The notes under the pieces: model-generated | The model's input: the letters and a program-made list of their open reading frames with translations, nothing else | Told to the model about the DNA's origin: nothing | Database searches by the model: none | Shown here: piece by piece, positions 13,476 to 34,462 of the stretch | Numbering within the stretch: the stretch's first letter is position 1 | Layout of the letters: each line of letters begins with the position of its first letter | From: Watersipora subatra | Lineage: Eukaryota | Direction: 5' to 3' | NCBI RefSeq assembly: GCF_963576615.1 | Contig: NC_088717.1 | Location: forward strand, 57,890,749-57,954,748 | DNA: 64,000 bases | Translations under genes and position numbers: made by a program

Positions 13476-14210
13476 CTAAGCAGCTGTGAGATTCACCCTG
13501 TATGTGTAGAGTGAACCATCTTGAGGTGATACATAGCCGATAGATATAAGAATAACATCAACTATTGTCCAGACTCCTAGACCACCAAAGCTGAACAGTT
13601 TTCCAATTCCTTCCTTCCAATAGCCTAAATAAAACCTATCAATGCCGAACCCGCCTAATGTAACACTAAGCAAGAGTGTGATAGACCAACTATGACCCCT
13701 AGTCCAATGACATAGCCGGTTTTTATAGAAGTGCCGCTTACCAAAACACAAAGTAGTTGGCTTAACTGTACACCTAGATCGGTATACTCTACTGGAATAT
13801 GTTCCAACGGAATTGCAAGATGTATTAAATTCACAGTCATAGTCTTCCTGAGGAAGTTGGTAACAAAACACGCAGGTGAGAGTTCGGGAATGGTTTCTCT
13901 CTCCCTCACAAGGGACCGACTCCACTGGCTGTACATAAACGTCTGTTAGCTTCCCATAGTCACAAGTAGTATTACAACCAGGAATTTCCTTGAGACAATT
14001 GCCATCCAAGTGTTTACATTGAGCATTACTAGGACAGGGCGGATGGGGCGTCATGGTAGAAGTAACATTGCTGGCTCTTGTACTATTTTGAGGTATAGAT
14101 GATGTGCTTGAGCTGTACGGTTGTGATGATGTCCTAATATCTGTCATAGCCCAGGTAGAGTAGAAGGAAGTCATTGTAAACAAGGCTACTAGAGCTAGAT
14201 ATGAACCCAT
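13476..14210 (-). CDS. TM2D3: TM2 domain-containing protein 3 (TM2D3/almondex) ortholog. It is intronless and 244 aa long.
   Basis: There is one complete ORF with an N-terminal signal peptide (MGSYLALVALFTMTSFYSTWA), a Cys-rich ectodomain (TCVFCYQLPQEDYDCEFNTSC against human MTCRFCWQLPETDYECTNSTSC) and the TM2 domain signature WSITLLLSVTLGGFGIDRFYLGYWKEGIGKLFSFGGLGVWTIVDVILISIGYVSPQDGSLY. Human TM2D3 has ...LGGFGADRFYLGQWREGLGKLFSFGGLGIWTLIDVLLIGVGYVGPADGSLYI. Confidence 0.85.
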   Translation of the reverse strand: MGSYLALVALFTMTSFYSTWAMTDIRTSSQPYSSSTSSIPQNSTRASNVTSTMTPHPPCPSNAQCKHLDGNCLKEIPGCNTTCDYGKLTDVYVQPVESVPCEGERNHSRTLTCVFCYQLPQEDYDCEFNTSCNSVGTYSSRVYRSRCTVKPTTLCFGKRHFYKNRLCHWTRGHSWSITLLLSVTLGGFGIDRFYLGYWKEGIGKLFSFGGLGVWTIVDVILISIGYVSPQDGSLYTYRVNLTAA

Positions 14211-15287: not shown

Positions 15288-15983
15288 CTAATGATCTCCC
15301 AATCTAATATCCCGAGAAGTTCGTGGAATGAAGCTGTTAAAATATGTGTTTGTGTTGCAGGCGATTGCCTTTGGAGCGTTAGACCGAGATGATCTGGTGT
15401 CATACTGGTGTGGTTGGGACATTAAAAAATTAAAACTTTCAATTAGCGCTGAGTGTGTGCTATTAGATAAAATGTTTATTAAAAGGTTGAGTCTTGCTCG
15501 TTTTCTTCTGATCTCTAAAACTTCCAACTGGATATTCTCTCGAGCTTCCGTTACGCTAGCAACTCCTTTCAAATTACATATAAATCTCACGGCTCTTCTT
15601 TGTATAAATTCAATTTGAGATATGTGTTTGACTAAAAAAGGGTCCCAGACCTCACAAGCGTACTCCAAGGCGGGTCTACATAAAGTCAAATATGCGATTT
15701 TCTTTACTTTATTAGGAGCATTAAAAAGAACCCGTTTTATCATTCCCAAGGTCTGTAATGCTTTGGTACAAATCGATGTTATATGGTGGTCCCAGCTCAA
15801 TGTATTTGTAATAATCACGCCCAAATATTTAAAGCTATCCACAACTTCCAGATTGGTATTATAAAGGTTGTACTCAGCTGGGACGCCAGAGTCTGACGTG
15901 AAATTAAAATTTACAATTTGACACTTTGTTACATTAAAAATCATTTTGGACTCAGAGGCCCAAAACTCAGAGCTATGGTACAT
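15288..15983 (-). mobile_element. Non-LTR (LINE, CR1/L2-like) reverse-transcriptase fragment covering the 3' part of ORF2 after the FADD motif. It is 5'-truncated.
   Basis: The 231-aa ORF is homologous to the C-terminal RT region of the LINE at 59339-60949. Compare KYLGVIITNTLSWDHHI...GMIKRVL...LCRPALEYACEVWDP with KYLGVILQSNLKFDKHI...GMIKRVL...LCRPHIEYASTVWDP, and the shared C-terminal NSF(I/L)P motif. Confidence 0.8.
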
Positions 15984-16834: not shown

Positions 16835-17050
16835 TTGCTGGATTTATCTTAGGCTTTTGATACTGTAAACCATCGTAAACTGATAGCTAAACTGAAAGAT
16901 TGGATTTCATGTTATTTTTTTTATTGAGGATTTTTCACATGAAAAGAAACAGTATGTTGTAGTAGATGGGTGCGACTCATCATTGAGATCTGTAAGGTTG
17001 AGCGTTCCTCAAGGATCTGTTCTTGGGCCACTGCTGTTCATTCTATATAT
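16835..17050 (+). mobile_element. Degenerate LINE reverse-transcriptase fragment covering the motifs upstream of FADD. It is frameshifted.
   Basis: Translation gives ILLDLSKAFDTVNHRKLIAKLKDW and, after a frameshift, [37 protein letters not shown]. Compare the LINE at 59.3 kb: VVLDFAKAFDKV...[37 protein letters not shown]. Confidence 0.7.
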
Positions 17051-17079
17051 AAACTAACTGCGCCTTCCGGCGTTGCCAG

Positions 17080-17262
17080 GGTATTAGAAATCAGCTTATA
17101 AACAATGAGAAGTGATGAGAGTTGCCTACCGCTTGCTATTAGCCTGGCACATTGATAATTGAAAATAGCATTAAAAATCAATTTATAAACAATGAGCAGT
17201 AATGAGTTGCCTGCCACTTGCTATTAGCCTGGCACATTGCCAATGGAAAATTCCAGTAAGTT
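17080..17262. repeat. Tandem duplication of about 85 bp (...cttataaacaatgag.agtgatgagagttgcct.ccgcttgctattagcctggcacattg...).
   Basis: Two adjacent near-identical copies are visible. Confidence 0.8.
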
Positions 17263-18043
17263 AGTTAATAAGTGCTAAACTTCTAATGATGGTACGTTAT
17301 GATGTTGCGTCAGCGTTGTTCAGCTACAGCTATTCTAATGATAGCTATAGCTGGAGGGACACGCATACTTTGAGAAATATATATATATAGGTGAGTTACC
17401 ATCACAAGTTTCTTTGCAGTGTCGTATCTTTTGTGGTCACTTTCCAGTAGGAAAAATCAGTATGAAGAAAGCTCAATGTTGGTTCTCTCAGTATATATAG
17501 TAAGGCCTAGCCCTTGTACCTCATGTGACGTCCTAATCCTGATCAGGGTTTTGGCGAGTCCCTCGTAGCCTCGGAACCTATAATGTGCATAGAGGCATAT
17601 ATAACATGCCCTTTTTTTATTGAGCCCTGAACCTAGACACTGTAGCCTAATTATTGGGATTCAAACGTAGGTTTTACTACCTCCAGGAATCATGTTCGGA
17701 AACCACAAGCGTTAGAGACCGTGTCTTACACACATGTATACTATCCTTTAGTACACTAATATGGCTTGCAGTCATCATGAGCTCGTTAAGGTGTTGGTCA
17801 CAATAGGAGCAGAAGTTAGCAAGCTTGTCCAAGGTGTTAAATGGGGGCATGGTAATCATACATGAGGATGAAGATAGCCTGTGAATCAGATGTTAACCTT
17901 GTACTAAAATCGAAATTGGCTTTACTTGTGTGGGTTGGATCAGCCTCTTCCCATACTTCCGGCTGTCATAGCTTTCGCTAGCCTAACCTGTTCTCTTCAG
18001 CTCTAACCTGCAAGTGCTGAGTACATACCTGTTCTTGTTTTAC

Positions 18044-18286
18044 CTGCTCTCCTGCCTTGACTAGGCATACTGGTGACTCTTTCCTCCTACCGACATCATC
18101 TGAGTCATATGGAGAGTGTATCCTAAACTCCCCAGAGCTTGGCTCCTCTACTATCATGGCCTCCTGCTGCATCTCTATCTCTTTAGCCCAAGAAGACTTC
18201 TCTTGGGCTACCATGCTACCTATTTTGGCTTGGCTAGCCTCACCGCTAGCACAGATTGTTGCCGAAACAGCATCCTCTGCACCTCC
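18044..18286 (-). CDS. Exon of an unidentified minus-strand gene (GGAEDAVSATICASGEASQAKIGSMVAQEKSSWAKEIEMQQEAMIVEEPSSGEFRIHSPYDSDDVGRRKESPVCLVKAGEQ).
   Basis: The open frame is bounded by a minus-strand acceptor aatcag at 18287-18288 and a donor gtaaaa at 18043-18042. It is phase-0 compatible with the upstream exon at 22734-22881. It is low-complexity and acidic, and I do not recognise the family. Confidence 0.4.
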
Positions 18287-18295
18287 CTGATTTAA

Positions 18296-21200
18296 AGAAT
18301 AGAGAAAACATAATATTTTTATGCTTTATTAGTTATCTTTAGGTGTTGACTGATGTTATAAAAAAGAATCAAGGAGATTGACCCACTAGAAGCTGAAATA
18401 TAGCCAGCCAAACACAGGTCTACCTAATAAAGAATCAGAGGAAAACCCTTCGAAAATCCCGAAAACTGTGACGTATAAAATCGACTTAATGGTCATGTGC
18501 CGGAGTTGCGCACCCTTACCGCCGTTATGTATAATGATTGTTTTGGCTACGAGATGTGAAACGCTTCTCGCGATAGTAAATAATTTACAGACTAGCTCTG
18601 GTTTCTCAGAAAAATCAAGCAAACATTGTGTGGTAAAGGCATTTGCCCACAACCCCTCGCCGTGATTTTTCAAAGCAGAAGAGCAGATTTTGACTATTGT
18701 GCTTCAAATTTTAACTCGATCTCCACGGATATGCTCCGAAGATCCTCTGTTCAACGAACAGCGCGTGTATAGTCTATATGCGATATCCGCGAGTTGCAGT
18801 TTGTTTAGAATAAGAAATAGGAATGAGACTTTTTGTTCCTTCATCATTTTTCTAATGTGTATCTACTGCAGCATTCTTCTACTGTGTATCTACTGCAGCA
18901 TTCAGTTGATTTTCATGATTATCGTCACTATTAACGGACTGGAAGTTCACTACAGCCATAAGCTTAACAAGACTAACTTGACCGTGCTGCTCTTGCTATA
19001 AGAAAAGAAAGCGATAACTTTTGCTTTGATTTTTCTATTGATCTATTATCTTATCTATGATTATTTTTTATGATTTATATAATATTCATAATGCATATTA
19101 TACAAAATAATAATATAACTGCGTATAGAATAAATGATGTAACTAATATAATTTGTAGAAAATTCCAAATGGTAACCGAGATTGATGATTGATTTAATTG
19201 ATTCCATTTATTAGCTATAGTTAAAAAAATCTGAACAACGCTAAAGATGAGTCTGAATAGGGAAGCTAAGTAGGAGAACAACAAAACTGAGCTGAACTAG
19301 CAAGATAGCGAAATGTTGCGAAATAATAGATGCGTGTAATTATTTTATGCTAAAACTAATCTACACGTCAGAGGGACTGGTTCGGAATTCTAGGAGCGAT
19401 GATTATTAGGCCCAATTTGATTGTTCTATACTTCCAGGGATTAAATCAATTAAAACCCTGTGGTGCCTGGTGTGCCATATTTGGCACACCAACTGTGAAC
19501 CAAAACTAAGCCCATCAGCAATGTGAATTGGGCCTTTGTTCCTTGTTGCATGGCTGGGTGGGTCTTTTATGTTATGGCCCTACATTTTATAATGAATGGT
19601 TACCATACTAAGGCTCCTTTCTTAGTTCTTGAAGTCGGCCATTTTCTCGAAAGATTTGTACCTGTGAACACCCTGATATTCTTCTCTCCCATTCACCAGT
19701 TTCAAGGTATGTATTAGAACAATTGTGGTTTATTACATTAGAATACGCCTTACTTTTTCAGTCTATCATAAATTTATCTCAGAAATAATATATTTAATAT
19801 GTTTAACAATTGAGGGAATGTAGATGGGTCAAAAATGGCACGTTGGGAATTACAAGTCACTCAATATTCCAGTATGAGGCTGCTTAGTGAATTACTAAAA
19901 CAGCCATTCGTTACTAGAGTATTACTGACAACTGAAAAATAGATATCATAAATCTTGAAAGGCTGTTGTGCAACCATTTACAAGACAGTGTAATATTAAT
20001 TTCCTTTTTTATCTAATGTTTAGATTATAATGACAGACAAACAAAAGCAACTCACTGTTCAGAATGTGCTGGAAATAATTGATGGGGATGAAAGTGACTT
20101 TGGAGAGTTTGAAGAAAGTGATGATGAAGATTTTTTACCCGCACAAGATCAACCAAACGTATCTGTAAGTTTCCGTTTGAAATGATGCTAATGAGATGTG
20201 CATACATGTATTACAAACCCACATGTAGGCTGCATGTACTCATAAAATGGCTTTCAATTGTACTGCAGATCAAAAGTTCGTTTCAATTATATTGCAGATC
20301 AAAATTTTAGTGTAAAAAAACTTTTTTCATATTTGCTAATGCAAACAATGCTGTCATCAATAAATTGTAGGATGACAACTCGAGTGGCGAGGAAGAAAGC
20401 AATCTCCTATTGAATGAATTGGCAGTACCTGAAGCATGCAAACGAGACAAAAGTGTTCAACAAAGCCGACCTGTTTACAGGTGGAGGAAAAAAGATTTTG
20501 TTGCGCCTGATGTAGAGTATGCAGGTCTACCCACAGCACCACCTATAGATATTGTCACTCCTCTACTTTATTTTCAAAAATTCATTGGTATTAGCATGAT
20601 AGCAACCATTGCTGAACAAACAAACTTGTACAGTGTGCAGAAAAATGGGAAGTCAATCGATACCAGTAGCAAAGAGATCGAGCAAGTGATTGGGATGTTT
20701 CTGCACATGGGACTGGTACGGATGAGCAGCATTCGTCAATACTGGGAAAGTGAGTCGTCGTATGGGCCAGTCAGTGACATAATGAGTCGAAATCGGTTTG
20801 AAGCTTTACTCTTTTCACTACACTTTGTTGATAACATGGCCATGTCAGAAGAAGTAAGGCAAAAGGATAAACTTTGGAAGATTCGGCCAATTCTGGACAA
20901 CTTGCAACAAAGATGTCTAGCTGTTTCACCAAGTCAACATTGCTCGATTGATGAGATGATAGTCCCATATAATGGAAAAAAGAGCCCGATACGACAGTAC
21001 ATCAAAAGGAAGCCACATCCTTGGGGATTTAAGATATGTGGCAGAGCGGGAATCGACGGCTTACTTCATGACTTTGATGTGTATCAAGGAGGCGATGGAC
21101 AACGAACTGAGCTTGGATTAGGAGCTGATGTAGTTCTTAAGCTCACTTCAACACTAGCACCTGGAAAGAATCACAAAGTTTTTGCAGATAACGTCTTTAC

Positions 21201-22665
21201 CAGTCTTCCATTAATTGCAAAACTGAAAGAAAGAGGAATTCTGTATACAGGTACGGTTAGACAGAATCGGCTGAAAGGATGCCCTCTAAGTGATGAGAAA
21301 ACTTTGAAGAAGAAAGGCAGAGGATCCTTTGACTACAGAGTTGAAGACATTCATAATGTGGCAGCAGTCAGATGGTACGATAATCGTGCAGTCACTCTTC
21401 TATCCACTGAGGCTGCTGTCGAACCTATTGGAGAGGCCAAGCGCTGGGATAAAAAGCAAAAGCAGCAAGTGACAATTCCTATGCCAGCTTTGATTCGCAA
21501 CTATAACAGTTACATGGGCGGGATAGACTTGCTGGACTCATACTTGGCCAAATATCGATTTTTAATGCGATCTAGAAGATGGTACACTTACCTATTTTGG
21601 CAATGTATCATGATTGGTGTAGTCAACGCTTGGCTGCTGTATCGTCGCGACTGCCAATCATTGGAACTGCCTGCAAAGGAGGTGCTAAATAGACGAAGGT
21701 TTCAGGCAATTTTTGCTAGCAGTATGACGTAAGTAAATGCCGTCAAAAGAGGTAGAAGGTCGGCATCTTCTCAAGCGAGGCAGTCAGCTCCAAAGCGTCC
21801 ACGAGTTGGGCCTTGCGATGATGTGCGAAGAGACAGTTTTGGGCACTGGCCAGAGTTAATTGACAAAAGAGGGAGGTGCAAGCATTGCACAGATGGCAAG
21901 AGCACTGTACAGTGCCAGAAGTGCAATGTCCTGCTCTGTCTAAACAAAGACAGAAACTGCTCGAGGGCATATCATCTTTAGTTGGTGTTTAATTATATTT
22001 TTCTTACACGTGCGTGTGTTACTTATCATTGTCATTAGATTATTACTTTGTAATGTACATGTATGTTTTTGTTCACAGTAGAGCTGGTTTTTTATTATTC
22101 GTTTACTGGGTATTTGGCTATTGAAAACTATTATTATTATTATTGTTGTAACTGCTATTATAGTAATATTATACTTTTAATTTTCTTCAGTAAGCATTTG
22201 CATTGAAAGTGTTCATAACATAAAATCTGGGTTTATTTGGCATATCTGATTAGTTGTATCTATTACCCAATGTGCCAAATTTGGCACATTAAAAAAAATG
22301 CACAAAAAACAACTCTGTTCTTATAATGACATGTAGTATGGTAAAAGGGTGTCTAAATAGTCTGAAAGGCAAGCAGAAAAATTTTTTTATAGCATTATTT
22401 CTAGGTCTGGGTACTACAGGGCTAAAACGCCGTGATTGTTATAGGAGAGCTCATTAGTTGGCTTAATTGACCAATGGCACACAAGTCGATTTCATACGTC
22501 ATATATTGATGATTACCAAAACACTTATGTTTTTTGGTAGACCTGTGTTTGGCTGGCTATATCTCAGCTTCTGGTTGGTCAATCTCCTTGATTCTTTTTT
22601 TAGAACATAAGTCAACACCTCAAGATGAATAATAAAGCATAATAATATTATTCTTTCTCTATTCT
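18296..22665 (+). mobile_element. piggyBac-superfamily DNA transposon, 4.37 kb, flanked by TTAA target-site duplications. It has long (about 230 bp) imperfect terminal inverted repeats.
   Basis: TTAA lies at 18292-18295 and at 22666-22669. The termini are AGAATAGAGAAA... and ...TTTCTCTATTCT. 18296 to about 18525 is the reverse complement of about 22435 to 22665 at roughly 85% identity, including GACGTAT(A/G)AAATCGACTT. Internally it encodes a piggyBac transposase. Palindromes GTGCCA(T/A)ATTTGGCAC sit near both ends of the internal region (19465 and 22272). Confidence 0.85.
20038..21981 (+). pseudogene. piggyBac transposase gene. Exon 1 is 20038-20163 and exon 2 is 20371-21981, the latter including the C-terminal Cys-rich domain. 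There is a single in-frame TAA at 21730-21732.
   Basis: Exon 1 (MTDKQKQLTVQNVLEIIDGDESDFGEFEESDDEDFLPAQDQPNVS) ends at donor gtaagt and exon 2 starts at acceptor ttgtag, both in phase 0. Exon 2 carries piggyBac hallmarks: YRWRKKDF...P...EQTNLYSVQ, MSRNRFEALLFSLHFVDN, a DDE core and KYRFLMRSRRWYTYLFW. After the TAA the same frame continues into the C-terminal zinc-finger domain (HWPELIDKRGRCKHCTDGKSTVQCQKCNVLLCLNKDRNCSRAYHL*). Confidence 0.8.
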
Positions 22666-22733
22666 TTAAGGTGTCGAGAGCTAAGTGAGCCTACCTGTCA
22701 ACAGACAGCTGGTTTGTCTGTAAGTCACTTTAC

Positions 22734-22881
22734 CTTAGCCTGGGTAGCAGGTAGCTTAGCATCCTTTAGAACTTTGTCCTCTAGGGTAGCCATGTTTGCA
22801 AAGGCATCCTCGAACTCCTGCTCGATCTCCAACTGAAGCTGGCACTCATCGACCTCTACAGCAGCAATAGCGTAGCAATAT
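22734..22881 (-). CDS. 5' exon of the same minus-strand gene as 18044-18286 (...EFEDAFANMATLEDKVLKDAKLPATQAK). The ATG at 22793-22791 may be the start codon.
   Basis: The frame is open, with a minus-strand acceptor cattag at 22882-22883 and a donor gtaaag at 22733-22732. Before the transposon arrived, the intron would have been about 72 bp, which matches other short introns in this window. Confidence 0.4.
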
Positions 22882-23768
22882 CTAATGAATTCTGATCATA
22901 TCAAATAGTTATATTTATATATTGAATTGAATATTAACTTTATTTCTGACCAGTGCACAAAGTCAATGAAGTCATAGAAATTATGGTAAAATTATAAAGG
23001 TGATTACTTTCAATAAAAGAAAGAATAAAATAGTGATTCGCTCATCAGAGTGGTGTGGCTGCGTGTATCAAAATGTGTCACTCAATCTTTTACAGTGTCG
23101 CCTGGAAGACTGACGAGTAGGGATATGACAGCTTAAACGATGTTGTCTAGTTTGTCTGGCCTTGAGCACATGATTTGCACACATCAACTCTAGATAGGTG
23201 CTTAGGTCTGTAATGTTTGCCATATACAACCACTCAGTATATGATTCTGTATGGGTAACCTTGCCGGTAAATTTAGTGAACAATGTTCGTTTTTATTTGG
23301 GGCATAATCAATTTTGTGCCATATTACTCATTTCAAATTATTGCGATTATTACTTCTAATTATAGTAATGCAGTGCAATACATCTATGACTAGCATTAAT
23401 AAATTAAATTCATAAATACTTTTCTTTCATATTAACAAACAAATCCCTAAATATTATATGTATCCCTGAATATGCGCAAAAGAAACTATCGGGCTGGCAA
23501 TATGAAAGCTCTTGATGGATTTAGTTTTTAGTAACGATCCGTATTGACTTGGCTATTGTCGGGTTTCTCAAATTGCTACCAGTATTTACTTGCTATCGCA
23601 CAACATTATTCTGGAGGATGTACTAGTATTTTTATACCGTAGTTGCTATAGCAACACTATTGTACATTTGGGATTTTGTTTCTTCTAGCTCTGGCGTTTG
23701 GACAGCTTCAATGAGTTTAGAAAGATCTGCTTTACAAAATTATATCTCCTATTATTATATAGTGAAAC

Positions 23769-26700
23769 ATGGAGCTCTCTGAGTCGACAGAATGTCCTAC
23801 TCAGGAAATGGTCACGGAAAGAGCTCAGTGTACAGGCGGTCTTACTCAGGAAATGGTTGCGGAGAGAGCTCAGTTTACAGACGGTCTTACTCAGGAAATG
23901 GTCAAGGAGAGAGCTCCCTTGACAAAAGAGCCCACTCAGGAAATGGTCATAGAAAAAACTCAGTTTACAGAAGGACCAACTCATGAAATGGTCACAGAGG
24001 GAGTTCAATTGACAGAAGGTATTACTCATGAAATGGATACAGAGAAAGTTCAGTTGACAGACACTCTTACTCTTGAAAGGGTCACAGATGGCGCTCAGTT
24101 GACAACAGATGCTTATCAGCAAGTAACCATTGACAGTTTATCAAACCGTGAAGAACTCTCGCTTCAACCTAACGAAAAGCTTGCTGGTAAATGCTAGTAC
24201 ATGTGTTTGGTGAAAGCTAATATTAAAGGTTGACTTGCAACAAAATTCACATTACAGTTATTTGATATCAAAAGATTAACCATGTCTTACTCTGTTGTGT
24301 TGTAGGTGCAAAATATGTGGGAATGTGATTACAAGCTCTTAAAAGCTAAAAAACGAACAGTTAATCGCAGCCACACGAGACCGCCGTAGTTTGGATTCTC
24401 TTTCCAAAACGGATCAAATGTGGCGTAGTTGTGAGAGATGGTTTCTGTTTACACTTTCATGCAATCTTATTCGTCGAAATATTTTCACAAATATACTTCA
24501 CGCATTCAATAAAACCTTGTCTATTGTTCTTACGCGTCTATTTTATCGTCATCATAATGCTGTCACTTTTAACACTGATATCTTATGACTTACCGTAAAA
24601 ATTCATTTAATTTTTTAAACTTACCTCGAAGGAGTACATATCATTGTCTGATAATCAAGAGGAGCCTGTTGGTCACCTGTGATAATCGAAAAGTGCTGCA
24701 AAAATTATTTGCAAAGTTTTGGGTCACATGATCAGATTACGACTTAACAATTAGATCAAGCCGAAACAAAACTGTAAAGTAGCGAGCATCTATATTCGAT
24801 ACGGGGTCTTTGGTGAAACCCGAAGTGTTTGTCATAAACTAGTGCTACGATAAGTTTTATATTGAGCTTTTTATTGGCCTTTCAACTCACGTGAGAACAT
24901 CACGTGACAAAACGATAACCCAACTGTAATGAATACGTCAGATAAATAAACAGATTCCAATCTACGGCTGCTTTTAGTTTTTGAGCTTTTAAGAGCTTGT
25001 AATCACATGTCCACATATTTGGCGCCTACAACACAACAGAGTAAGACATGGTGAATCTTTTGATACCAAATAACTGTAGTGTGAATTTTGTTGCAAGTCA
25101 ACCCTTAAGTGACAAGGATAGGTTAACAGAAAAACGTCATTGGACCTATCATTGTATGCACATGATCGGGGTTGGGAAATTCATCATCCATCAATCATTC
25201 ATTGTTGAATTCCACAGAATATGCAAAAACAGCCTTTAGATCACCACTGTGCTCTTCTTTTTGTTCACATTGTCAACATGTAATATTTAACAAAATGATG
25301 GTGGTAAACTTTGTCTAAAATGTTTAAATATACTTGCTCTAGCATCTTCGGATCTACAGCTCATTGTTTGTGATAGTTTGACGATTAGATGTATAACAGA
25401 ATGAATGAAGAGTGGCGATTGGCCTTCTGTGTGTATTCTAGGTGATGGTGATCTTGAAACTGTTGAGACACCTTCCTTCTCCATATATAACCTGAGTCGA
25501 GACACCCAGCCTTATCAACTCGCTTTTGCTAGAGTTGAGTTTGAAGGGCATTTCTTAAAAGGTGCAAAGTGGTAGGTAAGGTGAATGATACTGTAAGAGC
25601 TAGGAACTTCTACTAATGTGTCTACTAGGCATAAAATTAACTGTGCTGGCAGGTCGAGGGATGGAACTCAACTTCTTAGCTGCTCTGATGACAGGAAGAT
25701 GAGAATTTTCAACCTCCCTTCTCAGTTCTACACAGGAGACTTTTCAGAGGCCATACCTGAGATGGTAGTATTACTCTGTCTTGGTATACGCTTCTCTATA
25801 GTTTTATTTTGAGTAACCACTTTTCTATCGTGCTAATCCATGGCTATTATTCCTACATTACAGAGGTCAGTGGGAGCTGTGAAAGAGGGTGGTACTATAT
25901 ATGACTACTCATGGTACCCACTCATGGACAGTTCCATGCAAGATAGTTGCTGTTTTATCACAACCTCACAGCACGCACCCATACACCTCTGGGACTCAAT
26001 TTCCTCTCAGCTTGTTTCTACATATTCTATAATCAACCACCTTGTAAGTTGTGACTAGTGACAGCAATGGGTTGTCCATGGCATATCTTAAGTTGTATTG
26101 GTTACTTCCTTAGAGTTGCTGAAATTGATGCTTGAAAGCTGCAGTGTCTTAAGTTGTCATCTGATTCACTAGTTCACTTGATTGCTAGGTGATAACTATA
26201 AATAGAATTGAAAGGTGGGAGTAGTACTAAAATAGAATGGTCCACACAGTCTTTGATGCATTATAAGTGGCTAATATGATAGTTCTATTTATCTGTTACC
26301 CTTTTATTCACCTGCTACCGCTAAGTTCATAACTTGTCACGGCCAATTGTCTGTCAGCAGATGAGTAGGCTACAACAGCCTTCTCATCTAATTTAGATAT
26401 ATAGATACGGATATATATATATATATATATATATTTAGATATATAAATATGGATATATATATATTTGGATATATAGATACAGATATATATATATTTAGAT
26501 ATATAGATACGGATATAAAAAGCTGAATAGACAAATTCATTCAATCGTTTGTGGCCAAAGGTATCAACAACCCATAATTTTGTGTCAAGCATGCACCTTC
26601 ACATGCTAGGAATAGGTTACATATGCCTTGCTAAACAGACAGGACAGAACATCCGTTGCTTGTGTACAAACACGGCTCTTTTACCTTCTTCAGGGTATTT

Positions 26701-29023
26701 AGCCATTTTCAAAGTGAATACTTAGTGTAAAATCTCAAAATCTTTCTAATTATGAATTAATACCATGACTGGTTATGCTATGTCTTCCCCCTGTCTTAAA
26801 CATGAGTATCTGCCTATCTGGATTATTACGCATGAGTGTAAATAACTAGTAATGACTTCTTGTCTTCTTAACATAGTTGCGTAGAAACATTTTTAATTGT
26901 GTCATCAAAGATAGCAACTATTAAAATCATGCTTTCAATGTCGGTCCTGCAGTTTCATTAAAGCAGCCACACTACTCAATTTGCATAGCGTAATTATTTA
27001 GTTTGTATAGTAGCGTTTAACATGATACAAGTTATACAACTTAAAAGTATACAAATTATATAATGTACATATAATGTCCAACATACAGTAAAACTGTTTA
27101 ATAAATGATTTTTTCTTAATAACAAGATCTATGTTGTTACAGAGAATGGACTACTCATAGAGGTATTTCTAGGCTTCTTTTTTCATAGAGTTATTAAACA
27201 TGAATACTCACCTACATTGTATAAATCTATAAAGGATGAGATAGATGTCGCCTACAGCCTTTCTTTCTCACCGGATGGCTGCCTCATCTATGCTGGCTCA
27301 ACCAAACAAATCAGCGTATTTGATGTCAGCCAGCCTGGTCGGCAGATTGAGAATGTGAAGACGCATAAGCGTCGGAGCACAGGACAGATTGGCATCATTT
27401 CCTGTTTCGATTTTCTACCAGCTGAACAGCTGTTTGCCGCCGGGAGCTATTCCAAATCTGGTTGGTCACTTTTTTAGATTTGCTTCCAGAAAGTGGCATA
27501 GCCTAAAATTGCCATCTGATTTACTATTTGAATGATTTGTAACTTGCAATGTTTACCTTTGGAGTTGGCCAATAGAATTCAATGTGAAACAGTCGATGGT
27601 AATACAGTCAAACCTTAATTTATGATCATCTCTAAATGTGGACTTGTCAACATACAATGTAAAATTTGAGCAAATATCCGCCTTTACATGAGAAGTGATT
27701 TTTAACATACGACTGTTGAAGTTTTTCGAAACATAGTATTTTTATAAATCAGTACATTCTATTTCATAGAGTTTACTTTTACATTCGTAAATCAGTAGAT
27801 ACAATGTATATCGGCAGTTTCTTTCACATCCATACAGGTTGGTTCTTCGTCAAATAACATTGACATTTCCTTCATATCTTCATGTTATAGTTGTAAAGTG
27901 ATCCCGAGGGGACTAGTGAGCGAGGTAGTTAGTAGCATTAGGTAGTTAGTAGCATTAGGTAGTTAGTAGCATTAGGTAGTTAGTAGCATTAGGTAGTTAG
28001 TAGCATTAGGTAGTTAGTAGCATTAGGTAGTTAGTAGCATTAGGTAGTTAGTAGCATTAGGTAGTTAGTAGCATTAGGTAGTTAGTTGCAAATTGGTAGT
28101 TGGAAGCGAAACAACAAATAATAAAGTCACATGGGCATCTTTCTATAATTTCTCTAAAAATCACTAGTAATTCTTTTAAACAGTCTGTTAAATTTTGTGA
28201 TGCAGAAGGTGGCAGCATTGCCGAGAACAATCCTAAAATGAATAACATAGAACAGCTACCTGTGATACTTGAAGATAAAATGTAAAAATTGTTTGATTTA
28301 GTCCGAGTTGGACAATCTCTGTATTTCTACTAGTATCTTTACCTACGCACTATACTTCTACTGTATTACCACGGTTACACCTCAACAATATGGCCAAGTT
28401 TTCAATAATTATACAAAGTGAACATAAAAAGCTTATTTTTATTCACGGTTACTTTATTTCTTTAGTTTGTACTTACAAATGTAGTTATATAATTCTATTA
28501 TGAATCATCTATGTACTGTACCTATAATTACTGGAGGTAATTTTCATCAAGTTTTTGAGCTGTGAATGAAATGAAATTCAACGTATTATTGTATGAATAT
28601 TTTTCCAGCACATGAAATTTTAACATATGAAGCAAAATCAGCACTTACCAACCTTGTATGTCTGACTGTAAAAGATTGTTGATCAGATATTTTTTAGTTA
28701 GTTATCAATGAACATAGATATCTGCAATGGAAATAATAACTAAACAATTGGTATTTCATTATTGACCAGTTGTCTGCTACAAGTTACTTTGACTTACTAC
28801 TTGGATTACTGGTGGCTATCACGATTCATGAGTGCAGATGATGCAACTCTGTATATTGTTTAGGTATCAGACTTTTGTAGCAGGTGGTGAGAGTGCAAAA
28901 TTACTCACAAAGCTGCTCAATGTAGGCCTTCCTTTAGTAGTAGTGACTATTTTCTAGTTCACAAGCGGCTATCTCAGGGTATAATAACTTGGTTTTACAT
29001 GTTGTATATATGTGTGTAGATAT

Positions 29024-29054
<31 letters not shown>

Positions 29055-29411
29055 CATATATGTATACACATATATATATATGTTATTGGGCGCAATGACA
29101 CCGGCGCATAAAATATGGCTTGCCCAGATACCGACAGCAATCAACTCAGGTGAGTTGCAGAAAAGTGCGCTATTGGGAACAGCTTAGATCTTGAGGCGAG
29201 TGCTCAAACTACCAGGTCTCTGGTAGGAGACTCGAGTTAGACCAGAAATTACCACCCATATGGGTTAACCGGGATGAGGAAACAATATACGCAAACGGTA
29301 TATATATATATACATGTATCTGTATATGCTGCCTTGTTCTTACACTATATTAAGAATGTATATATATATGGCTCCATACTTTCACACATGGTTGTATATA
29401 TATGTGTGTGC

Positions 29412-29451
<40 letters not shown>

Positions 29452-30919
29452 CTCAAAGTCCATCTGAAAGTCCGTCTGTTGGAAGTCCGGCTATAGCTAT
29501 TATTAGAACAGCTGAGCTGGACAACAATACAGACTCAAAGTCATGGCTTACCGTCATTGGAAGCCTAACCTTATTAACTAGCTTAGTGGAGTTTTCCATT
29601 GGCTATATGCCAGGCTACTAGCTTGAAAGGTACAGTTGTTTGAGAAAGTTTTAAGACCTTTACAGTTGTTTTTATTTTTCTCTCAATTTATTTCAACTAC
29701 ACGACACACTTCTATCATGGTATGTACTTTGAAAGTTATAATGGCAAATGTTGTTATATGTTAAATACAAATCAATTTTCTGTCCTAAGACTGTTCTATT
29801 ACACGGGCAACGCCAGGTGGCACAGCTAGTATATATATATATATTGCAATTGCACATATTGCAATTGCAATTATAACGCGATTGCATGAAACTATTAGTA
29901 GTATGATTTTAACCTGTAGTTTTTAATAAACTTCATACACAGCTCTAATTGACTCGATTATTGAGCACTTTACTTTACAGTGTAAACCACATATACTATA
30001 TATATATATATATATGCATACTGCCTTGTTTTTATACTCCTGAATTTGTATCCTAGTAGTGTTATACTGACTATTACAGCGTAGTGAGTGTACACCTTTG
30101 TATAAAAGGATGTTGCAGGCTGCGTACAGCCTGCAACATGCGCATAGATGAAGATAAACTACCAAAATATCCCTTAGTATGTTCTTGTTTGAACTTTAAG
30201 GCCTTGCAAGGGTTTTGACATGTTACCCTCAGCACTGAAGTCTGTATTGCGCCACACCTTGATAAACTTGCCACTGCTTGTTATGCTGTTGCGTTGGCCG
30301 AGTCATACAATTATGTTCACCTCGTTTTTCCAAACATTTGCTAGTTGGTGTCTATGATCAGAGGAACAATGAAGCTAGCATGATACTAGAGGGCCACACC
30401 GGGGGTGTCACACAAATAAAGTTCTCTGCCGATGGTAACTGTCTCTACAGCGGAGCACGCAAGGTAGCTCTTTAAAACCTCCCGCTATAAAATCTTGCTT
30501 CTCATGAAAGCTGTTTTTATCATCTACAGTGAACAAACGCATAAGGGATTAGACATCGGTCTTGTTCTAGGACGGAGAGTTACTAGTGTGGGACATGCGC
30601 TCTCCTGGCCAGATATTGGCTATCTTAGAAAGGGATGTGCGGACTAACCAGAGAATCTACTTTGACCTTGACCCCTCCGCGAGGTATGAGTGATCTAAAG
30701 CTGGATGTTACAGTATAGCTACCAATTAGGCTTGCCTTAGTATTGTATTTGACCTTTATAGTGCTGCTGTTGTCACTATCCAGGTATATGTGCAGTGGTA
30801 ACCACAATGGAACAGTCAATATATGGGACTTGGCTGAGATTGACTGCAGCACCAGTGAGTCTGAACAACAGATTGAGTGCAAGTTAAACTTCACTGCCAG
30901 CTCTGATTGTGTCAACTCT
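23769..30919 (+). CDS. WRAP53: WRAP53/TCAB1 (telomerase Cajal-body protein 1, WD40) ortholog. Exons are at 23769-24186, 25442-25573, 25629-25758, 25864-26043, 27235-27460, 30345-30463, 30571-30683 and 30784-30919. The last exon or exons are unresolved.
   Basis: The spliced product aligns to human TCAB1. [43 protein letters not shown] matches [49 protein letters not shown]...APIHLWD matches GDTIYDYCWYSLMSS...[17 protein letters not shown]...[11 protein letters not shown]...[23 protein letters not shown] matches AHSLCFSPDG...VRVFSTARPGR...[62 protein letters not shown]...[12 protein letters not shown] matches [38 protein letters not shown]...[12 protein letters not shown]. All junctions have a GT donor and an AG acceptor with consistent phases. 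Exon 1 is acidic with a 33-bp (11-aa) tandem repeat, and assigning it to this gene rests only on phase and donor compatibility. Confidence 0.8.
23790..24090. repeat. Coding minisatellite with a 33-bp unit (about 9 copies), encoding LTQEMV.ERAQ.T.G repeats in WRAP53 exon 1.
   Basis: Tandem copies of ctcaggaaatggtcacggaaagagctcagtgtacaggcggtctta variants are visible. ORFs open on both strands because of the periodicity. Confidence 0.85.
24213..25103. mobile_element. Foldback/MITE-like element made of two inverted arms of about 170 bp (24213-24385 and 24925-25103) around a 540-bp core. It lies in WRAP53 intron 1.
   Basis: The reverse complement of the right arm is about 90% identical to the left arm (GGTTGACTTGCAACAAAATTCACA.TACAGTTATTTG.TATCAAAAGATT.ACCATG...GTGATTACAAGCTCTTAAAAGCT). 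The arm starts sit next to TTAA(A/G)GG. A third arm copy is at 62845-63010. Confidence 0.7.
26390..26520. repeat. Compound microsatellite ((TA)n and (ATATAGATACGG)-like units).
   Basis: Read directly in the sequence. Confidence 0.9.
27925..28084. repeat. Minisatellite with a 17-bp unit (gtagttagtagcattag) in about 10 copies, in a WRAP53 intron.
   Basis: Perfect tandem copies are visible. Confidence 0.95.
29086..29290 (+). mobile_element. SINE/MITE-like dispersed repeat, copy 1. It is flanked by TA/TATG microsatellites (28990-29085 and 29290-29460).
   Basis: It is about 88% identical over roughly 200 bp to 44880-45095 (GGCGCAATAACACC.GCGCATAAAAT.TGGCTTGCCCAGATACC...GGTCTCTGGTAGGAGAC.CGAGTTAGA.CAGAAATTACCACCCATAT). 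It contains the internal hairpin GGTCTC..GAGACC. Confidence 0.6.
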
Positions 30920-31139
30920 GTATGGTCAGTTGTTCCCATATTCTCCTAACTCGTTTTCCTGATATAGACTTACGTATCTTTTAAACTCTGAAATTGTAGT
31001 TTCATGGGATTGTTTCACCTTTTAACACGAGGAGGCAATTCCATGTTGCATTGCAAAGCAGCTTTTGATAATGAAATCTGCTATAGTCATGACTTACAAC
31101 CCCCTATTCTATGCATTTGAGCAAAACCTATTTTTTATT

Positions 31140-31309
31140 ATAGCTATCAGATAATTAGTTTTGTTACTAGGTTTATTATATAGGTGAACTGTGTTGTTAC
31201 TAGGTCTATTATATAGGTGAACTGTGTTTTTACTAGCTGTATTATATAGGTGAACTGTGTTGTTACTAGCTGTATTATATAGGTGAACTGTGTTGTTACT
31301 AGGTCTATT
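31140..31309. repeat. Minisatellite with a 34-35-bp unit (tattatataggtgaactgtgttgttactaggtc). This is the left half of an array that a transposon has split.
   Basis: Five tandem units are visible. The same unit resumes at 34231-34462 in the same orientation. Confidence 0.9.
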
Positions 31310-34230
31310 CTGCCCATGTCTGGCAAAACACTGTATCTCAAAAATTTTCAATTTTCACTTTTTTACATATTTCACATCTAAATAGTGTTCCCTGTCTTGT
31401 CCTAAAATATTTTGGCTCAAAAATCATTCATTAGCGTAGTTTCAACCCTGGTGAAACAATACATCACCGTTGCGTCAAGACGTTATGTCTGACAAAACAA
31501 TGCATCTTAACGCACTCACTATGATTGTGTTAACTGCTTTCAGTTAGAAGTATCATGTTAGGGACTGATAAGATTACCCATACTGGTTCGATACAAAATT
31601 CCAGACACCAATCCTGGTGATGAAGAGATTTTTAGGTGTCAATTTGAAGCTTGTTAGAAACACACAATACTAATATTTAATGTTTTTCTCTACTACGTCA
31701 GTTAGTAAATGTGACTCGAGTAGTCAACTACACAGCTTCATGAGCATGGCATATTCAAATATATCTGTAAACCACAAACGATCTTTGAGTGATACAGCCC
31801 AAAGTGGTGTCTCTTCCGCTGATGGTAAGTTTACTCAAATTACACTGCGAGGGTTTTTCTTACTATTATTTAAAGTCTACCATACGTACAATTAAGTTGA
31901 ATCTTTTTACTTCAGCTGATTATATGTTGGCTTGTGTTACAGCAGCCGAATCTCAAGATGCAAATTCAACTAAGAAAATCCGTTCCGAACAAGACAAATA
32001 TGAACGAAACATCCGAAAATACCCACTCCGACCTCCCTGTGCTTGTAAAGACAAATGCTGTGAAAAACTAAATCCGCGGGGCCGCATTGCAGTGTGGATG
32101 GAATTTAGGAAAAATGCTACAATGACCGAAAAGGAGTGTTGTGGAGCTTGCTAGATCGTCAACCTACAAAAGGTTCGGGTACCTCCAGATCTTGGTATGT
32201 GAAGTACAACCTAATAGCCGACGATGGAAGTAAAGTCCAAGTTTGGGAAGCTTTTTTCTTAGCTACTTTCGGTTACCCTACATCCAGCTCTGTCATACAA
32301 GAGCTCCTAAAATCAGATCCATACCTGTTGGCCCCAACACCCGACAAGCGAGGCAAGACCACTCCTCACCATGCTTTGACTGATAGCGATGTTGAGCGCA
32401 TAAAATCACATATACGGTCATACAATCCTTGCATATCGCACTACCGTCGATCACATGCACCAAATAGGTTGTATCTGCCTAATGAACTAACAGAGAAAGA
32501 AATGCATTCAAATTTCATTCAACGCTATCCACGCTACCAATGTTCGTACGAAACATATTGTCGACATATACGGAAGCTCAACATCTCATTTGTGAAATTA
32601 GGAGAGGAGCAATGTGAGTTGTGCCTGGAATTGGATGTTGGGATACATGACACCGACAAGAGCACCGGTATCTGTAGAACTGACTGTAGCTTGTGCGAGA
32701 GAAAAGCCAAACATAAGGCAGAATACACACTGGCCAGGAGTGAATACGAAAATGAGATTAGTAAATTAAAGGAAGGCAAAATCGTTCGAAGCATTGACTT
32801 ACAAAAGGTCATAATGCTGCCAAGATTGCCAGGTGTTAAAACGGTTTGCGTCACAAAACGCATCATTGCTTTCAATGAAACGTTTGCACCAGTGAAAGCA
32901 TATTTGTCCAGAGCCAAAAACATTTGTATTGTCTGGCATGAAGGTCTGGCTGAACGAAGATGTGAAGAGATAACATCTATGTACATGAAAGCACTGGAAG
33001 TCGATCGAGATTATGATGATATTGTTTATTTTATGGACAATTGTGCGGCGCAGAACAAAAATTGGAATTTAATAACTGCGATGGTAAGTCTTATGAATTC
33101 TGGAAAGATGCAAGCTGACACAGTCACCTTCAAGTACCTTGAGGCTGGGCACACCTTCATGTCAGCAGACACAGTGCATGCTGGTGTAGAAAGAGAAATG
33201 AAGGCAATGAAAAATTTATACGACTTTAATGACTTCATAGAGTGTGCGAGCAGGGTTTCGAAAACATCAGTGCTGGTTCCTGTCAATGAAGATTTTCGTC
33301 GCTTTGTCGGAGGACAAAGTCAAGCAAAGCTAAGTAAAGATTGTCCCCGCCTAGCTGAATGCAGAGTGATTCAGTTTCGAAAGAACAGCTCATCAGTTTG
33401 GCTCAAGAAATCGCACGATCAATCTCAGTTTCAAGAGTTGGATTTCTTGAAAAAAAAGCACAGTCTAACTGACGAACCACTAATGATGAGAGAGAGGCCA
33501 AGGGGCATTACTGATGAGAAGAAAACTGACATTGTTGCGAAACTCTGCCTACTGATGCCAATGAATAGACATAGATTTTGGTCCTACCTTAATGCTTCAG
33601 ATGTACCCGATCTTATCTCACAGGATGACTAATTGCTGACACACCGTGATCTACATGCATTAGATGATTGTTGAAAACATAGTTTAAAAAAGTGCACAAC
33701 GTGGCATGACAAGCTGTAGATTTTGTACCACATTGTACAACAAACTGCAGAACTAGAATTGCAAGTTATTTTTTGTGTTATATTATTATTTTTATTACAA
33801 GTTATTTCATGTTACATCGCAATTGCTGAAAAGAAACAGTTGTTCCTGAATTCGGTCTGTAGTAAGCTGTATCAAACCATTAAATGTAAATATAAAGTGT
33901 TGTGTCAGTTATGTTCATCATCTAATAAATAGCTAATTGTCTGGAGAAACACTGCATCAGAGTGATGCGTTGTTATGTCAGGCAATGGGGATAAAGTACA
34001 GCAATTAGTGATTGTCGGGCAAAACACTTTATCATTATTTTTTTGCAAAAAAAGAGTTTGAACAAAAATTTAAGAATGCTCAGTGAGTAGAGTGCACTTT
34101 TCTGGATAGAATGGTATATAACTTTACTAGGCTCGAGCAACCGTAGGCCGTGGCTGATGCTAAACACGTTTTGCTCATTTACCGAAAGTTTGCAATTTAT
34201 GAGATACAGTGTTTTGTCAGACATGGGCAG
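31310..34230 (+). mobile_element. Unclassified TIR DNA transposon, 2921 bp, with 30-bp terminal inverted repeats and an apparent 4-bp TATT target-site duplication. It inserted into a minisatellite.
   Basis: The left end is CTGCCCATGTCTGGCAAAACACTGTATCTCA. The reverse complement of the right end is CTGCCCATGTCTGACAAAACACTGTATCTCA, with one mismatch. The flanks ggtcTATT|...|TATTatatagg rebuild an uninterrupted minisatellite unit. It encodes one large transposase-like ORF. Confidence 0.8.
31740..33632 (+). CDS. Putative transposase of the 31310-34230 element, probably DDE-type. Exon 1 is about 31740-31824, followed by a GT-AG intron, and exon 2 is 31916 to about 32154. The main ORF at 32136-33632 is in a different frame, so there is one frameshift or an unrecognised splice.
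   Basis: Exon 1 (MSMAYSNISVNHKRSLSDTAQSGVSSAD) ends at donor gtaagt and exon 2 starts at acceptor ttacttcag. The N-terminal C-x-C-x3-C-C cluster is PPCACKDKCCEKL. The main ORF has a second cluster CELCLELDVGIHDTDKSTGICRTDCSLCERKAKH. The candidate catalytic residues are D (RSIDLQKV), then D about 80 aa later (YFMDNCAAQNKNWN), then E 34 residues after that (FKYLEAGHTF). The D-x5-NK spacing is reminiscent of the IS1595/Merlin DDNK signature, and the DD34E spacing is reminiscent of Tc1. Neither assignment is confirmed. Confidence 0.55.
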
Positions 34231-34462
34231 TATTATATAGGTGAACTATGTTGTTACTTGGTTTATTATATAGGTGAACTATGTTGTTACTAGGTTTATT
34301 ATATAGGTGAACTCTGCTGTTACTAGGTTTATTATATAGGTGAACTGTGTTGTTACTAGGTTTATTATATAGGTGAACTGTGTTGTTACTAGGTTTATTA
34401 TATAGGTGAACTCTGTTGTTACTAGGTTTAAGATATAGGTGAACTCTGCTGTTACTAGGTTT
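34231..34462. repeat. Minisatellite with a 34-35-bp unit. This is the right half of the array split by the transposon.
   Basis: About 7 units of tattatataggtgaact(g/c)tg(t/c)tgttactaggtt are visible. Confidence 0.9.

Follow-up and report, generated by a model that had tools for sequence, protein, structure and literature searches.

A piggyBac-type transposon and its putative Kolobok-type shell in repeat-like DNA of Watersipora subatra

General features of the locus

The 64-kb stretch of the Watersipora subatra genome analysed here (hereafter the window, to which all coordinates refer) contains a 4.37-kb unit that is bounded by TTAA at positions 18292–18295 and 22666–22669 and encloses a transposase gene read on the plus strand. 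The element is an ordinary piggyBac-type transposon, recently inactivated and already annotated automatically in RefSeq, and it had been correctly located, with TTAA at both ends, by an earlier sequence-only reading of the window. The explanation that we favour, with a confidence a little better than even, is a two-layer transposon insertion within repeat DNA, in which a piggyBac core lies in a non-coding shell of Kolobok type.

The conceptual transposase protein was searched against the Pfam profiles and the sequence of the Trichoplusia ni piggyBac structure 6x67, and peptide queries were run by word-indexed search against 5.8 billion protein clusters, among which are the RefSeq proteins of W. 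subatra. Two groups of related elements were used for comparison: the contigs L007, L008, and L009, which carry the three closest relatives with fetchable DNA (57–59% amino acid identity to the window transposase by tblastn), and the contigs L001–L004 of a more distant related family, the protein of which (P0002) is 55% identical to the window transposase. Between the window element and its relatives, the transposase coding region alone aligns (64–67% identity), and no noncoding similarity was aligned. The DNA flanking the unit was compared with L005 and L006, two metagenome contigs of one ENA assembly carrying the open reading frames (ORFs) P0123 (133 aa) and P0125 (112 aa). No further copies of the 4.37-kb unit or of its two layers were found within the window by self-BLAST and a terminal 16-mer search, and an exact 26-mer of the outer terminal inverted repeat (TIR) had no match in one scan of JGI metagenome contigs.

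Transposase gene

The check that had been proposed for the piggyBac assignment, a search with the Pfam profile DDE_Tnp_1_7, bore it out, the profile being matched over its whole length (positions 1–349 of 349, E=1.9e-77). The T. ni piggyBac transposase 6x67 was also matched (E=3.8e-26), the alignment taking in the DDD residues and the C-terminal cysteine-rich (Cys-rich) domain; the catalytic D239, D318, and D431 of the window protein align to D268, D346, and D447 of the T. ni protein, respectively. The frame starts at a native ATG at 20030 and comprises an acidic N-terminal coding exon (20030–20164), a GT-AG intron (20165–20370), and a second exon (20371–21983), giving 580 sense codons and one internal TAA. 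The single TAA had been recognized in the sequence-only reading, the count of 577 codons given there being slightly too low.

The part of the main exon upstream of the stop (20371–21729) encodes the DDE_Tnp_1_7 domain with all three catalytic residues. It is followed by the in-frame TAA (21730–21732, codon 499) and by a still-open continuation of 82 codons and a TAG (21733–21983), which encodes a conserved KRGR motif and the Cys-rich DNA-binding domain and is left untranslated because of the TAA. At the TAA, the relatives have Leu (L008), Lys (P0093), or Ser (P0002); in L008, the corresponding sequence is SSLTLVNASRRKGRP, with a Leu codon (TTA) that differs from TAA by one base change. Homology to the relatives resumes in frame after the TAA, with the KRGR motif and then the Cys-rich domain, which aligns to 6x67, P0002, and L008. 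The claim that the transposase is intact except for one TAA at 21730 is therefore confirmed. Since the relatives carry sense codons at this position and homology goes on past it, the TAA is an ordinary nonsense substitution, and the open and homologous frame beyond it indicates that the mutation is recent. Dependence on read-through, which had also been suggested, found no support, and a plain nonsense mutation is preferred. Splicing around the TAA, which lies inside a GTAAGT sequence, was considered and rejected: the in-frame acceptors give introns of 21–51 nt that delete the conserved coding KRGR motif, and the RefSeq model stops at the TAA. As judged by the integrity of its transposase ORF, this copy is not autonomous, since the ORF is interrupted at 21730, where the RefSeq protein also terminates. 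The truncated product would lack the KRGR motif, which resembles a nuclear-localisation signal, and the Cys-rich domain, so that active transposase is presumably no longer made by this copy.

The best database match of the protein, 100% identical, is XP_067949966.1 of W. subatra (‘piggyBac transposable element-derived protein 3-like’, 61-Mb chromosome). This RefSeq protein is reproduced exactly by translating 19592–19706, 20037–20164, and 20371–21732; the model specifies 534 aa, contains the intron of the sequence-only reading plus an extra upstream exon, and ends at the TAA. Identity to all other annotated W. subatra proteins is at most 62%, and the transposase family is therefore represented once among the annotated genes of the species. 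The name of the RefSeq model and its termination at the TAA, together with this single representation, could be taken to mean that a domesticated piggyBac-derived host gene makes a truncated functional protein. We regard this as highly improbable. Domestication is defined by Bouallegue et al. 2017 (PMC5381638) by a single copy at an orthologous position in several species, purifying selection, and the loss of TIRs (terminal inverted repeats) and target-site duplications, whereas end repeats and target-site duplications are still present here; the frame past the stop is still open and homologous, which suggests that the nonsense mutation is recent; the RefSeq name was assigned automatically by similarity; and no ortholog was found. 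The transposase gene in RefSeq is best regarded as a prematurely terminated transposon copy rather than a gene of the host.

Exon–intron organization

The 206-nt intron in the acidic N-terminal region (20165–20370) agrees with the RefSeq model; it had been reported from the sequence alone as a GT-AG intron at 20164–20370, of which only the start needs to be moved, to 20165. L007, L008, and L009 all divide their acidic N-terminal region at the same position with GT...AG junctions, i.e. DFNPDNNNEK/gtatacc...tag/NSSDSEDS, WQQSFQ/gtatacc...cag/TIDEDNSDDSE, and LQRADQ/gtaacta...tag/DTPNQSDSDS (slashes mark splice sites), whereas the L001–L004 family, including L002, has no intron at this position. 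The extra upstream exon of the RefSeq model (19592–19706) is, by homology, probably an exon of the 5′ untranslated region (5′UTR). It is followed by a 5′ intron (19707–20036) with the RefSeq acceptor at 20036 and an alternative acceptor at 20024, which leaves the ATG at 20030 as the start codon. A 5′UTR exon and an intron ending just ahead of the ATG were found in all relatives examined in this respect (L002, L007, and L009), and their intron corresponds to the window donor at 19706/19707 and the acceptors at 20024 or 20036.

Two introns are thus present in the transposase gene of the window and shared with its nearest relatives; they are not reported for the piggyBac-like elements described in PMC5381638. 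The N-terminal intron had been singled out as a peculiarity of the element, a view not sustained by its presence at the same position in L007, L008, and L009. Because the introns are shared by related elements, the two-exon (in fact three-exon) structure is a feature of the clade and not of this copy.

Boundaries of the unit and the insertion site

The inverted-repeat identity of the unit starts precisely at TTAA on both sides, and the outside flanks are unlike each other (TGAT vs CACC). Two overlapping inverted-repeat arms of 74 and 71 nt (89 and 93% complementary, respectively) merge to 139–140 nt at 90% in BLAST. In pairwise alignment, the first ~135 nt past TTAA are identical at 120 of 132 positions (91%), and the identity over ~193 nt, up to and including a conserved block, is 153/182 (84%, 11 gap columns); past this block (TGACGTAT[A/G]AAATCGACTT, at 18469–18487 and 22483–22501), it falls to the random level (27/73). 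The left outer repeat (18296–18487, plus strand; core, 18296–18430) begins 5′-AGAATAGAGAAA, and the right one (22483–22665, minus strand; core, 22530–22665) ends ...TTTCTCTATTCT-3′. Next to TTAA, the termini read 5′-AGAATAG...CTATTCT-3′, i.e. they start with AG and end with CT. The terminal 16-mer is present solely at the two unit ends within the 64 kb, where 0.09 chance matches are expected. The sequence-only reading had described TIRs of ~230 bp at ~85% identity; long inverted ends are indeed present, and their size is about 193 nt at 84%.

Both metagenome contigs homologous to the flanks lack the unit. L005 aligns to window positions 22871–22665 and then straight to 18293–17772, with a 3-nt overlap, and L006 aligns to 22871–22669 and 18293–18182. 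At the insertion point, these empty-site sequences read TCAA (L005) and TCAC (L006), vs TTAA in the window. In L006, positions 2234–2437 contain a local tandem duplication of ~135 nt that spans the position equivalent to the insertion site. Because L005 and L006 run contiguous across the insertion point, the 4.37-kb TTAA-bounded stretch is an insertion. The possibility raised earlier, that the TTAA-bounded unit might not be the transposed unit, was examined in this way, and the unit was found to be precisely absent from both sequences.

The sequence-only reading had further proposed that the element occupies an intron of a minus-strand host gene, between exons at 22734–22881 and 18044–18286, and that an insertion 3 bp from the splice acceptor might disturb splicing or lead to exonisation. 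A donor-like GT does lie at 22733 and an acceptor-like AG at 18288–18287, and GAT alone (18289–18291) separates this AG from TTAA, as had been stated; the stretch left after excision is also real, its size being 73 nt (64+4+5) and not 72 bp. The proposed exons belong to segments that recur in the metagenome contigs, namely an upstream part at 22670–22871 (minus strand; 78% identical in L005 and 75% in L006), which includes the proposed exon 22734–22881, and a downstream part at 17772–18291 (minus strand), which includes the proposed exon 18044–18286 and 270 nt past its putative donor and is 70% identical to L005 over 563 columns in BLAST, or 79–81% gap-free.

Several observations speak for the intron proposal and against our assignment of the flanks to repeat DNA. 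Joining the two segments gives an open frame of 130 codons, and its donor (AAG/GTAAAG) and acceptor (TCAG/G) sites are plausible, the GT and AG being present in L005 and L006 as well; the local GC content is raised (0.46–0.50); and substitutions between the window and L005 are slightly biased to third codon positions (26/17/33). An unannotated, lineage-specific, or non-coding transcript at the flanks is possible. On the other side, three of the six frames are open across 18044–18286, which makes the open frame there weak evidence. The joined 130-aa peptide had no match in the word-indexed search, and an exhaustive HMMER search returned solely P0123, P0125, and a weak repetitive low-complexity match to a 2963-aa protein; neither search yielded a protein of named source or a W. 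subatra RefSeq protein, though RefSeq proteins of the window itself are in the collection. Pfam searches of the ORFs of L005 and L006 gave nothing meaningful. In L005, the sole contig covering all four segments, identity to the window is 82% in the first proposed exon, 79% in the proposed intron, 81% in the second exon, and 79% in the 270 nt past the second putative donor, and L006 is likewise similarly conserved over the first exon and the intron. L005 also has an in-frame TAG in the first exon and frameshifting indels (1, 1, 10, and 8 nt) in the second, and in L006 the putative splice would be followed at once by a TGA codon. Finally, the transposase is antisense to the proposed gene. In sum, the exons are no more conserved than the intron, the homologs carry stops and frameshifts, and no annotated protein matched the peptide; we therefore consider the host-intron proposal, and with it any significance of the distance to the acceptor, to be improbable. 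Since exon, intron, and further flank are equally conserved, the homologs are broken, and the homology to L005 ends after ~840 nt, the flanks are repeat-like, and they probably represent a diverged interspersed repeat or pseudogene family.

Internal ends and the outer shell

Short canonical piggyBac ends could be determined in three relatives. The left end is TTAA-CCCCCTGAGGCCCC in L002, TTAA-CCCCCTTAGGCCCA in L008, and TTAG-CCCCAGAGAGCCC in L007, all three thus having CCCC ends of 13–15 nt directly at TTAA or TTAG. In each, the left end runs directly into a palindrome, which recurs together with CCCAATGT 130–136 nt before the right end. Four contigs of the L002 family have these short ends next to different flanking DNA, at TTAA-CCCCC boundaries, and in that family the ends are therefore true transposition boundaries.

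Counterparts of these structures lie well inside the 4.37-kb unit, 1.16 kb from its left and 0.24 kb from its right boundary. The left-end module (19450–19491, plus strand) consists of TTAA-AACCCTGTGGTGCC followed by the palindrome TGGTGTGCCATATTTGGCACACCA, in register with the TTAA-CCCCCTGAGGCCCC and palindrome of L002 and with the ends of L008 and L007. The right subterminal module (22266–22290, plus strand; CCCAATGTGCCAAATTTGGCACATT) consists of CCCAATGT and the palindrome GTGCCAAATTTGGCAC, and the right-end module (22410–22427, minus strand) reads GGTACTACAGGGCT-AAAA, the reverse complement of AGCCCTGTAGTACC. Within the window, CCCTGTGGTGCC and CCCTGTAGTACC were found solely at 19456 and 22421, in inverted orientation, and the palindrome GTGCCAWATTTGGCAC solely at 19472 and 22272. 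The spacing also agrees with that of the relatives: the distance between the inner left end and the 5′ donor is 251 nt (249 nt in L002), the inner right end at 22421 follows the right palindrome by 131 nt (130–136 nt in the relatives), and the core so delimited (~19454–22423) measures 2.97 kb (3.0–3.3 kb in the relatives). The Cys-rich domain of T. ni piggyBac is said, from work on 6x67 and 6x68, to bind subterminal palindromic repeats. The palindromic motifs of the window core are likely to be binding sites for the Cys-rich domain of its transposase.

Outside the core, the left arm of the shell (18296–19449, 1154 nt) and the right arm (22428–22665, 238 nt) add up to 1.39 kb with ~190-nt inverted ends and a perfect TTAA duplication. 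Pfam searches of the shell ORFs gave nothing meaningful (none matched in the left arm), Rfam gave no match over 17000–24500, and no second copy of the left arm was found in the window. In a survey of 157 piggyBac-like elements (PMC5381638), the TIRs are 14±2 nt long, the first C is highly conserved (C[C/A/T][C/A/T]...), and the 3′ G is essential for excision. The inner modules CCCTGTGGTGCC and CCCTGTAGTACC fit this short C-first, G-last form if read from CCC but not if read in register with the relatives, where their first two bases are AA and AG; the outer ends begin with AG. Because of this AG start, vs the conserved C, and because the homologs of canonical ends lie inside, the long inverted ends are probably not those of piggyBac. 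Kolobok transposons are marked by a TTAA duplication and 5′-RR...YY-3′ ends (PMC9587614), and full-length Xenopus Kolobok copies and T2-MITEs (miniature inverted-repeat transposable elements) all end in AG or AGGRR (PMC6004289). The shell has both the TTAA duplication and RR...YY termini, and it is most likely a separate non-autonomous element of Kolobok type, similar to the T2-MITEs; this separate identity, like the order of events, we infer from one copy. It resembles the non-autonomous Xenopus elements (T2-MITEs such as Xmix; XKol) in the TTAA duplication, the AG...CT termini, the inverted ends, and the lack of coding capacity, and differs from them in its terminal motif (AGAAT vs AGGRR), in being known from a single copy, and in containing a whole piggyBac element.

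The core of the locus is a piggyBac-like element of the PGBD3-like clade, with short CCCTG...CAGGG end repeats and palindromic subterminal motifs. Its gene has one intron behind the 5′UTR exon and another in the acidic N-terminal region, and specifies a DDD cut-and-paste transposase that a point mutation to TAA at codon 499 would have disabled in this copy. The core would be enclosed by a Kolobok-type shell (18296–19449 and 22428–22665), and the 4.37-kb unit sits at a TTAA within what is probably a diverged interspersed repeat or pseudogene family.

Several points weigh against this two-layer explanation. Symmetric AG...CT termini are expected by chance in ~1 in 16 cases. The shell is known from a single copy, and neither layer was seen elsewhere in the 64-kb window or in one metagenome scan. 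In register with the relatives, the inner ends open with AA and AG, not CC, and the right duplication would be AAAA; there is no clean TTAA/TTAA pair at the inner ends, the left one having TTAA and the right one AAAA or CTAA. If the ends are read from CCC...GGG, the flanks form a 5/6 direct repeat (TTAAAA/CTAAAA). Inner ends plus flanks deviate from the canonical form at 3–6 of 12 positions, while a single lesion is present in the 581 codons of the ORF. With so young-looking an ORF, neutral decay is an unlikely source of the changes at the inner ends, and simple recent nesting in place does not predict such degenerate ends. Structural group SG2 of Bouallegue et al. 2017 (PMC5381638), in which the TIR is accompanied by imperfect subterminal inverted repeats of 11–400 nt, may also leave room for one long-ended element.

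The rival explanation, in line with the sequence-only reading, is a single piggyBac-like element, the ~190-nt outer repeats of which are its own functional ends and the inner modules of which are binding sites or the fossil ends of an ancestor. The perfect outer TTAA duplications, the precise absence of the whole unit from the empty sites, the existence of piggyBac-like elements with subterminal inverted repeats as long as 400 nt (PMC5381638), and the near-intact ORF beside degenerate inner ends, which fits the use of the outer ends in making this copy, are in its favour. SG2 elements resemble the unit in having long imperfect inverted repeats by their ends, and differ from it in that its outer ends are AG and its canonical-type ends are internal. 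The outer ends begin with A, not the conserved C, and the 3′-terminal G is reported to be essential for excision (PMC5381638); all three relatives with determinable ends use 13–15-nt CCCC ends at TTAA/TTAG, and the internal modules agree with these ends in sequence and spacing. We therefore judge a single long-ended element to be unlikely, though deserving of serious consideration.

A further question is which unit transposed here. To judge from its inner ends, this copy may not have arisen through canonical use of those ends at this site; the composite may have moved by its outer ends, or the ends of the family may be atypical. The argument for transposition of the 4.37-kb composite, and not of the piggyBac core, is that the outer duplications are perfect, that the ORF has one lesion in 581 codons, and that the inner ends are too degenerate for a young copy. 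In this event, the piggyBac transposase gene would be carried within, or would have adopted, AG-terminated Kolobok-type long ends, TTAA being used by both superfamilies. A Kolobok transposase might have mobilized the composite as a passenger; a more surprising possibility is that a piggyBac transposase worked on ends without the conserved terminal C/G. No Kolobok transposase was identified within the 64-kb window. We hold mobility of the composite to be unlikely.

A second DNA transposon in the window (31307–34233; 2.93 kb, within the region 31277–34263) was considered as a Kolobok source for the shell and rejected, since its ends differ (AT[T/A]CTGCCC) and it has no TTAA flanks. It has 50-nt inverted ends (86%) and a 498-aa ORF (32136–33632, plus strand) with a sub-threshold Pfam match to DUF7869. 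A direct repeat of ~29–31 nt, TATATAGGTGAACTGTGTTGTTACTAGGTCT/TATATAGGTGAACTATGTTGTTACTTGGTTT, stands directly against both inverted ends. Target duplications of DDE transposons are not known to approach this length, being far shorter.

In L008, the piggyBac-like element (TTAA at 2762 and 6085) is bracketed by an outer inverted repeat of ~75 nt containing TTAAAGAAACCGAGAAAC, at 2598–2672 and 6321–6390, 90–300 nt outside the element ends, which may be another nested insertion. Kinship of this repeat with the outer TIR of the window unit was rejected, the local alignment score of 19 (shuffle mean, 18.9±2.5) being that expected by chance.

Other features of the window

The neighbouring 244-aa ORF at 13476–14210 corresponds exactly to XP_067948252.1 of W. 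subatra, a TM2D gene. A tandem repeat with a period of ~90 nt and 73–75% identity between copies was found at 23779–24109; it is open in several frames on both strands, and one plus-strand frame specifies a 142-aa acidic repeat of TQEMV(T/A)ERAQ type without a Pfam match. A sequence of ~138 nt occurs three times (24223–24360, 24971–25108, and 62845–62977) with 90–92% identity, two copies being inverted and ~600 nt apart in a MITE-like arrangement. By eye only, open segments at 25400–31000 (plus strand) resemble exons for WD40 repeats (...APIHLWDS) of a TCAB1/WRAP53-like protein, and ORFs at 15288–15983 and 59339–61727 (both on the minus strand) resemble those for non-LTR (long terminal repeat) reverse transcriptase and endonuclease. 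With these non-LTR-like ORFs and two DNA transposons, the window is rich in transposons.

Relationship to known piggyBac elements and implications

The core shares with the PGBD3/PGBD4-like piggyBac clade, represented by T. ni piggyBac (6x67/6x68) and by RefSeq ‘PGBD3-like’ proteins of fishes, ticks, molluscs, and W. subatra, a full DDE_Tnp_1_7 domain, the DDD residues, a Cys-rich domain, the TTAA target, short CCC...GGG-type ends, palindromic subterminal motifs, and a length of ~3 kb. It differs in that its ends are not at a clean TTAA pair and in the nonsense codon that removes the Cys-rich domain. With the L001–L004 family, in which multiple insertions have TTAA-CCCCC boundaries, it shares the order of TIR and palindrome, the 5′UTR donor ~250 nt in, and the CCCAATGT and palindrome ~133 nt before the right end, whereas that family has an intact 590-aa ORF and neither an N-terminal intron nor an outer long-TIR shell.

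Human PGBD3, which lies in intron 5 of ERCC6 and gives rise to the CSB-PGBD3 fusion, reportedly has a splice acceptor shortly before its transposase ORF. The acceptor of the 5′UTR intron in the window element and its relatives is a site of the type that permits such exon trapping; unlike human PGBD3, the window element is antisense to the sole, unsupported candidate for a host transcript. Annotation of the flanking segments as gene exons would be justified only if RNA evidence supported it.

The locus is of modest interest in two respects, namely as a member of a PGBD3-like piggyBac clade of marine invertebrates in which two introns are conserved, and for its canonical ends placed inside a TTAA-flanked, AG-terminated shell with long TIRs. 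Should the composite turn out to move, two TTAA-specific transposon families would provide a case of hitch-hiking across superfamilies.

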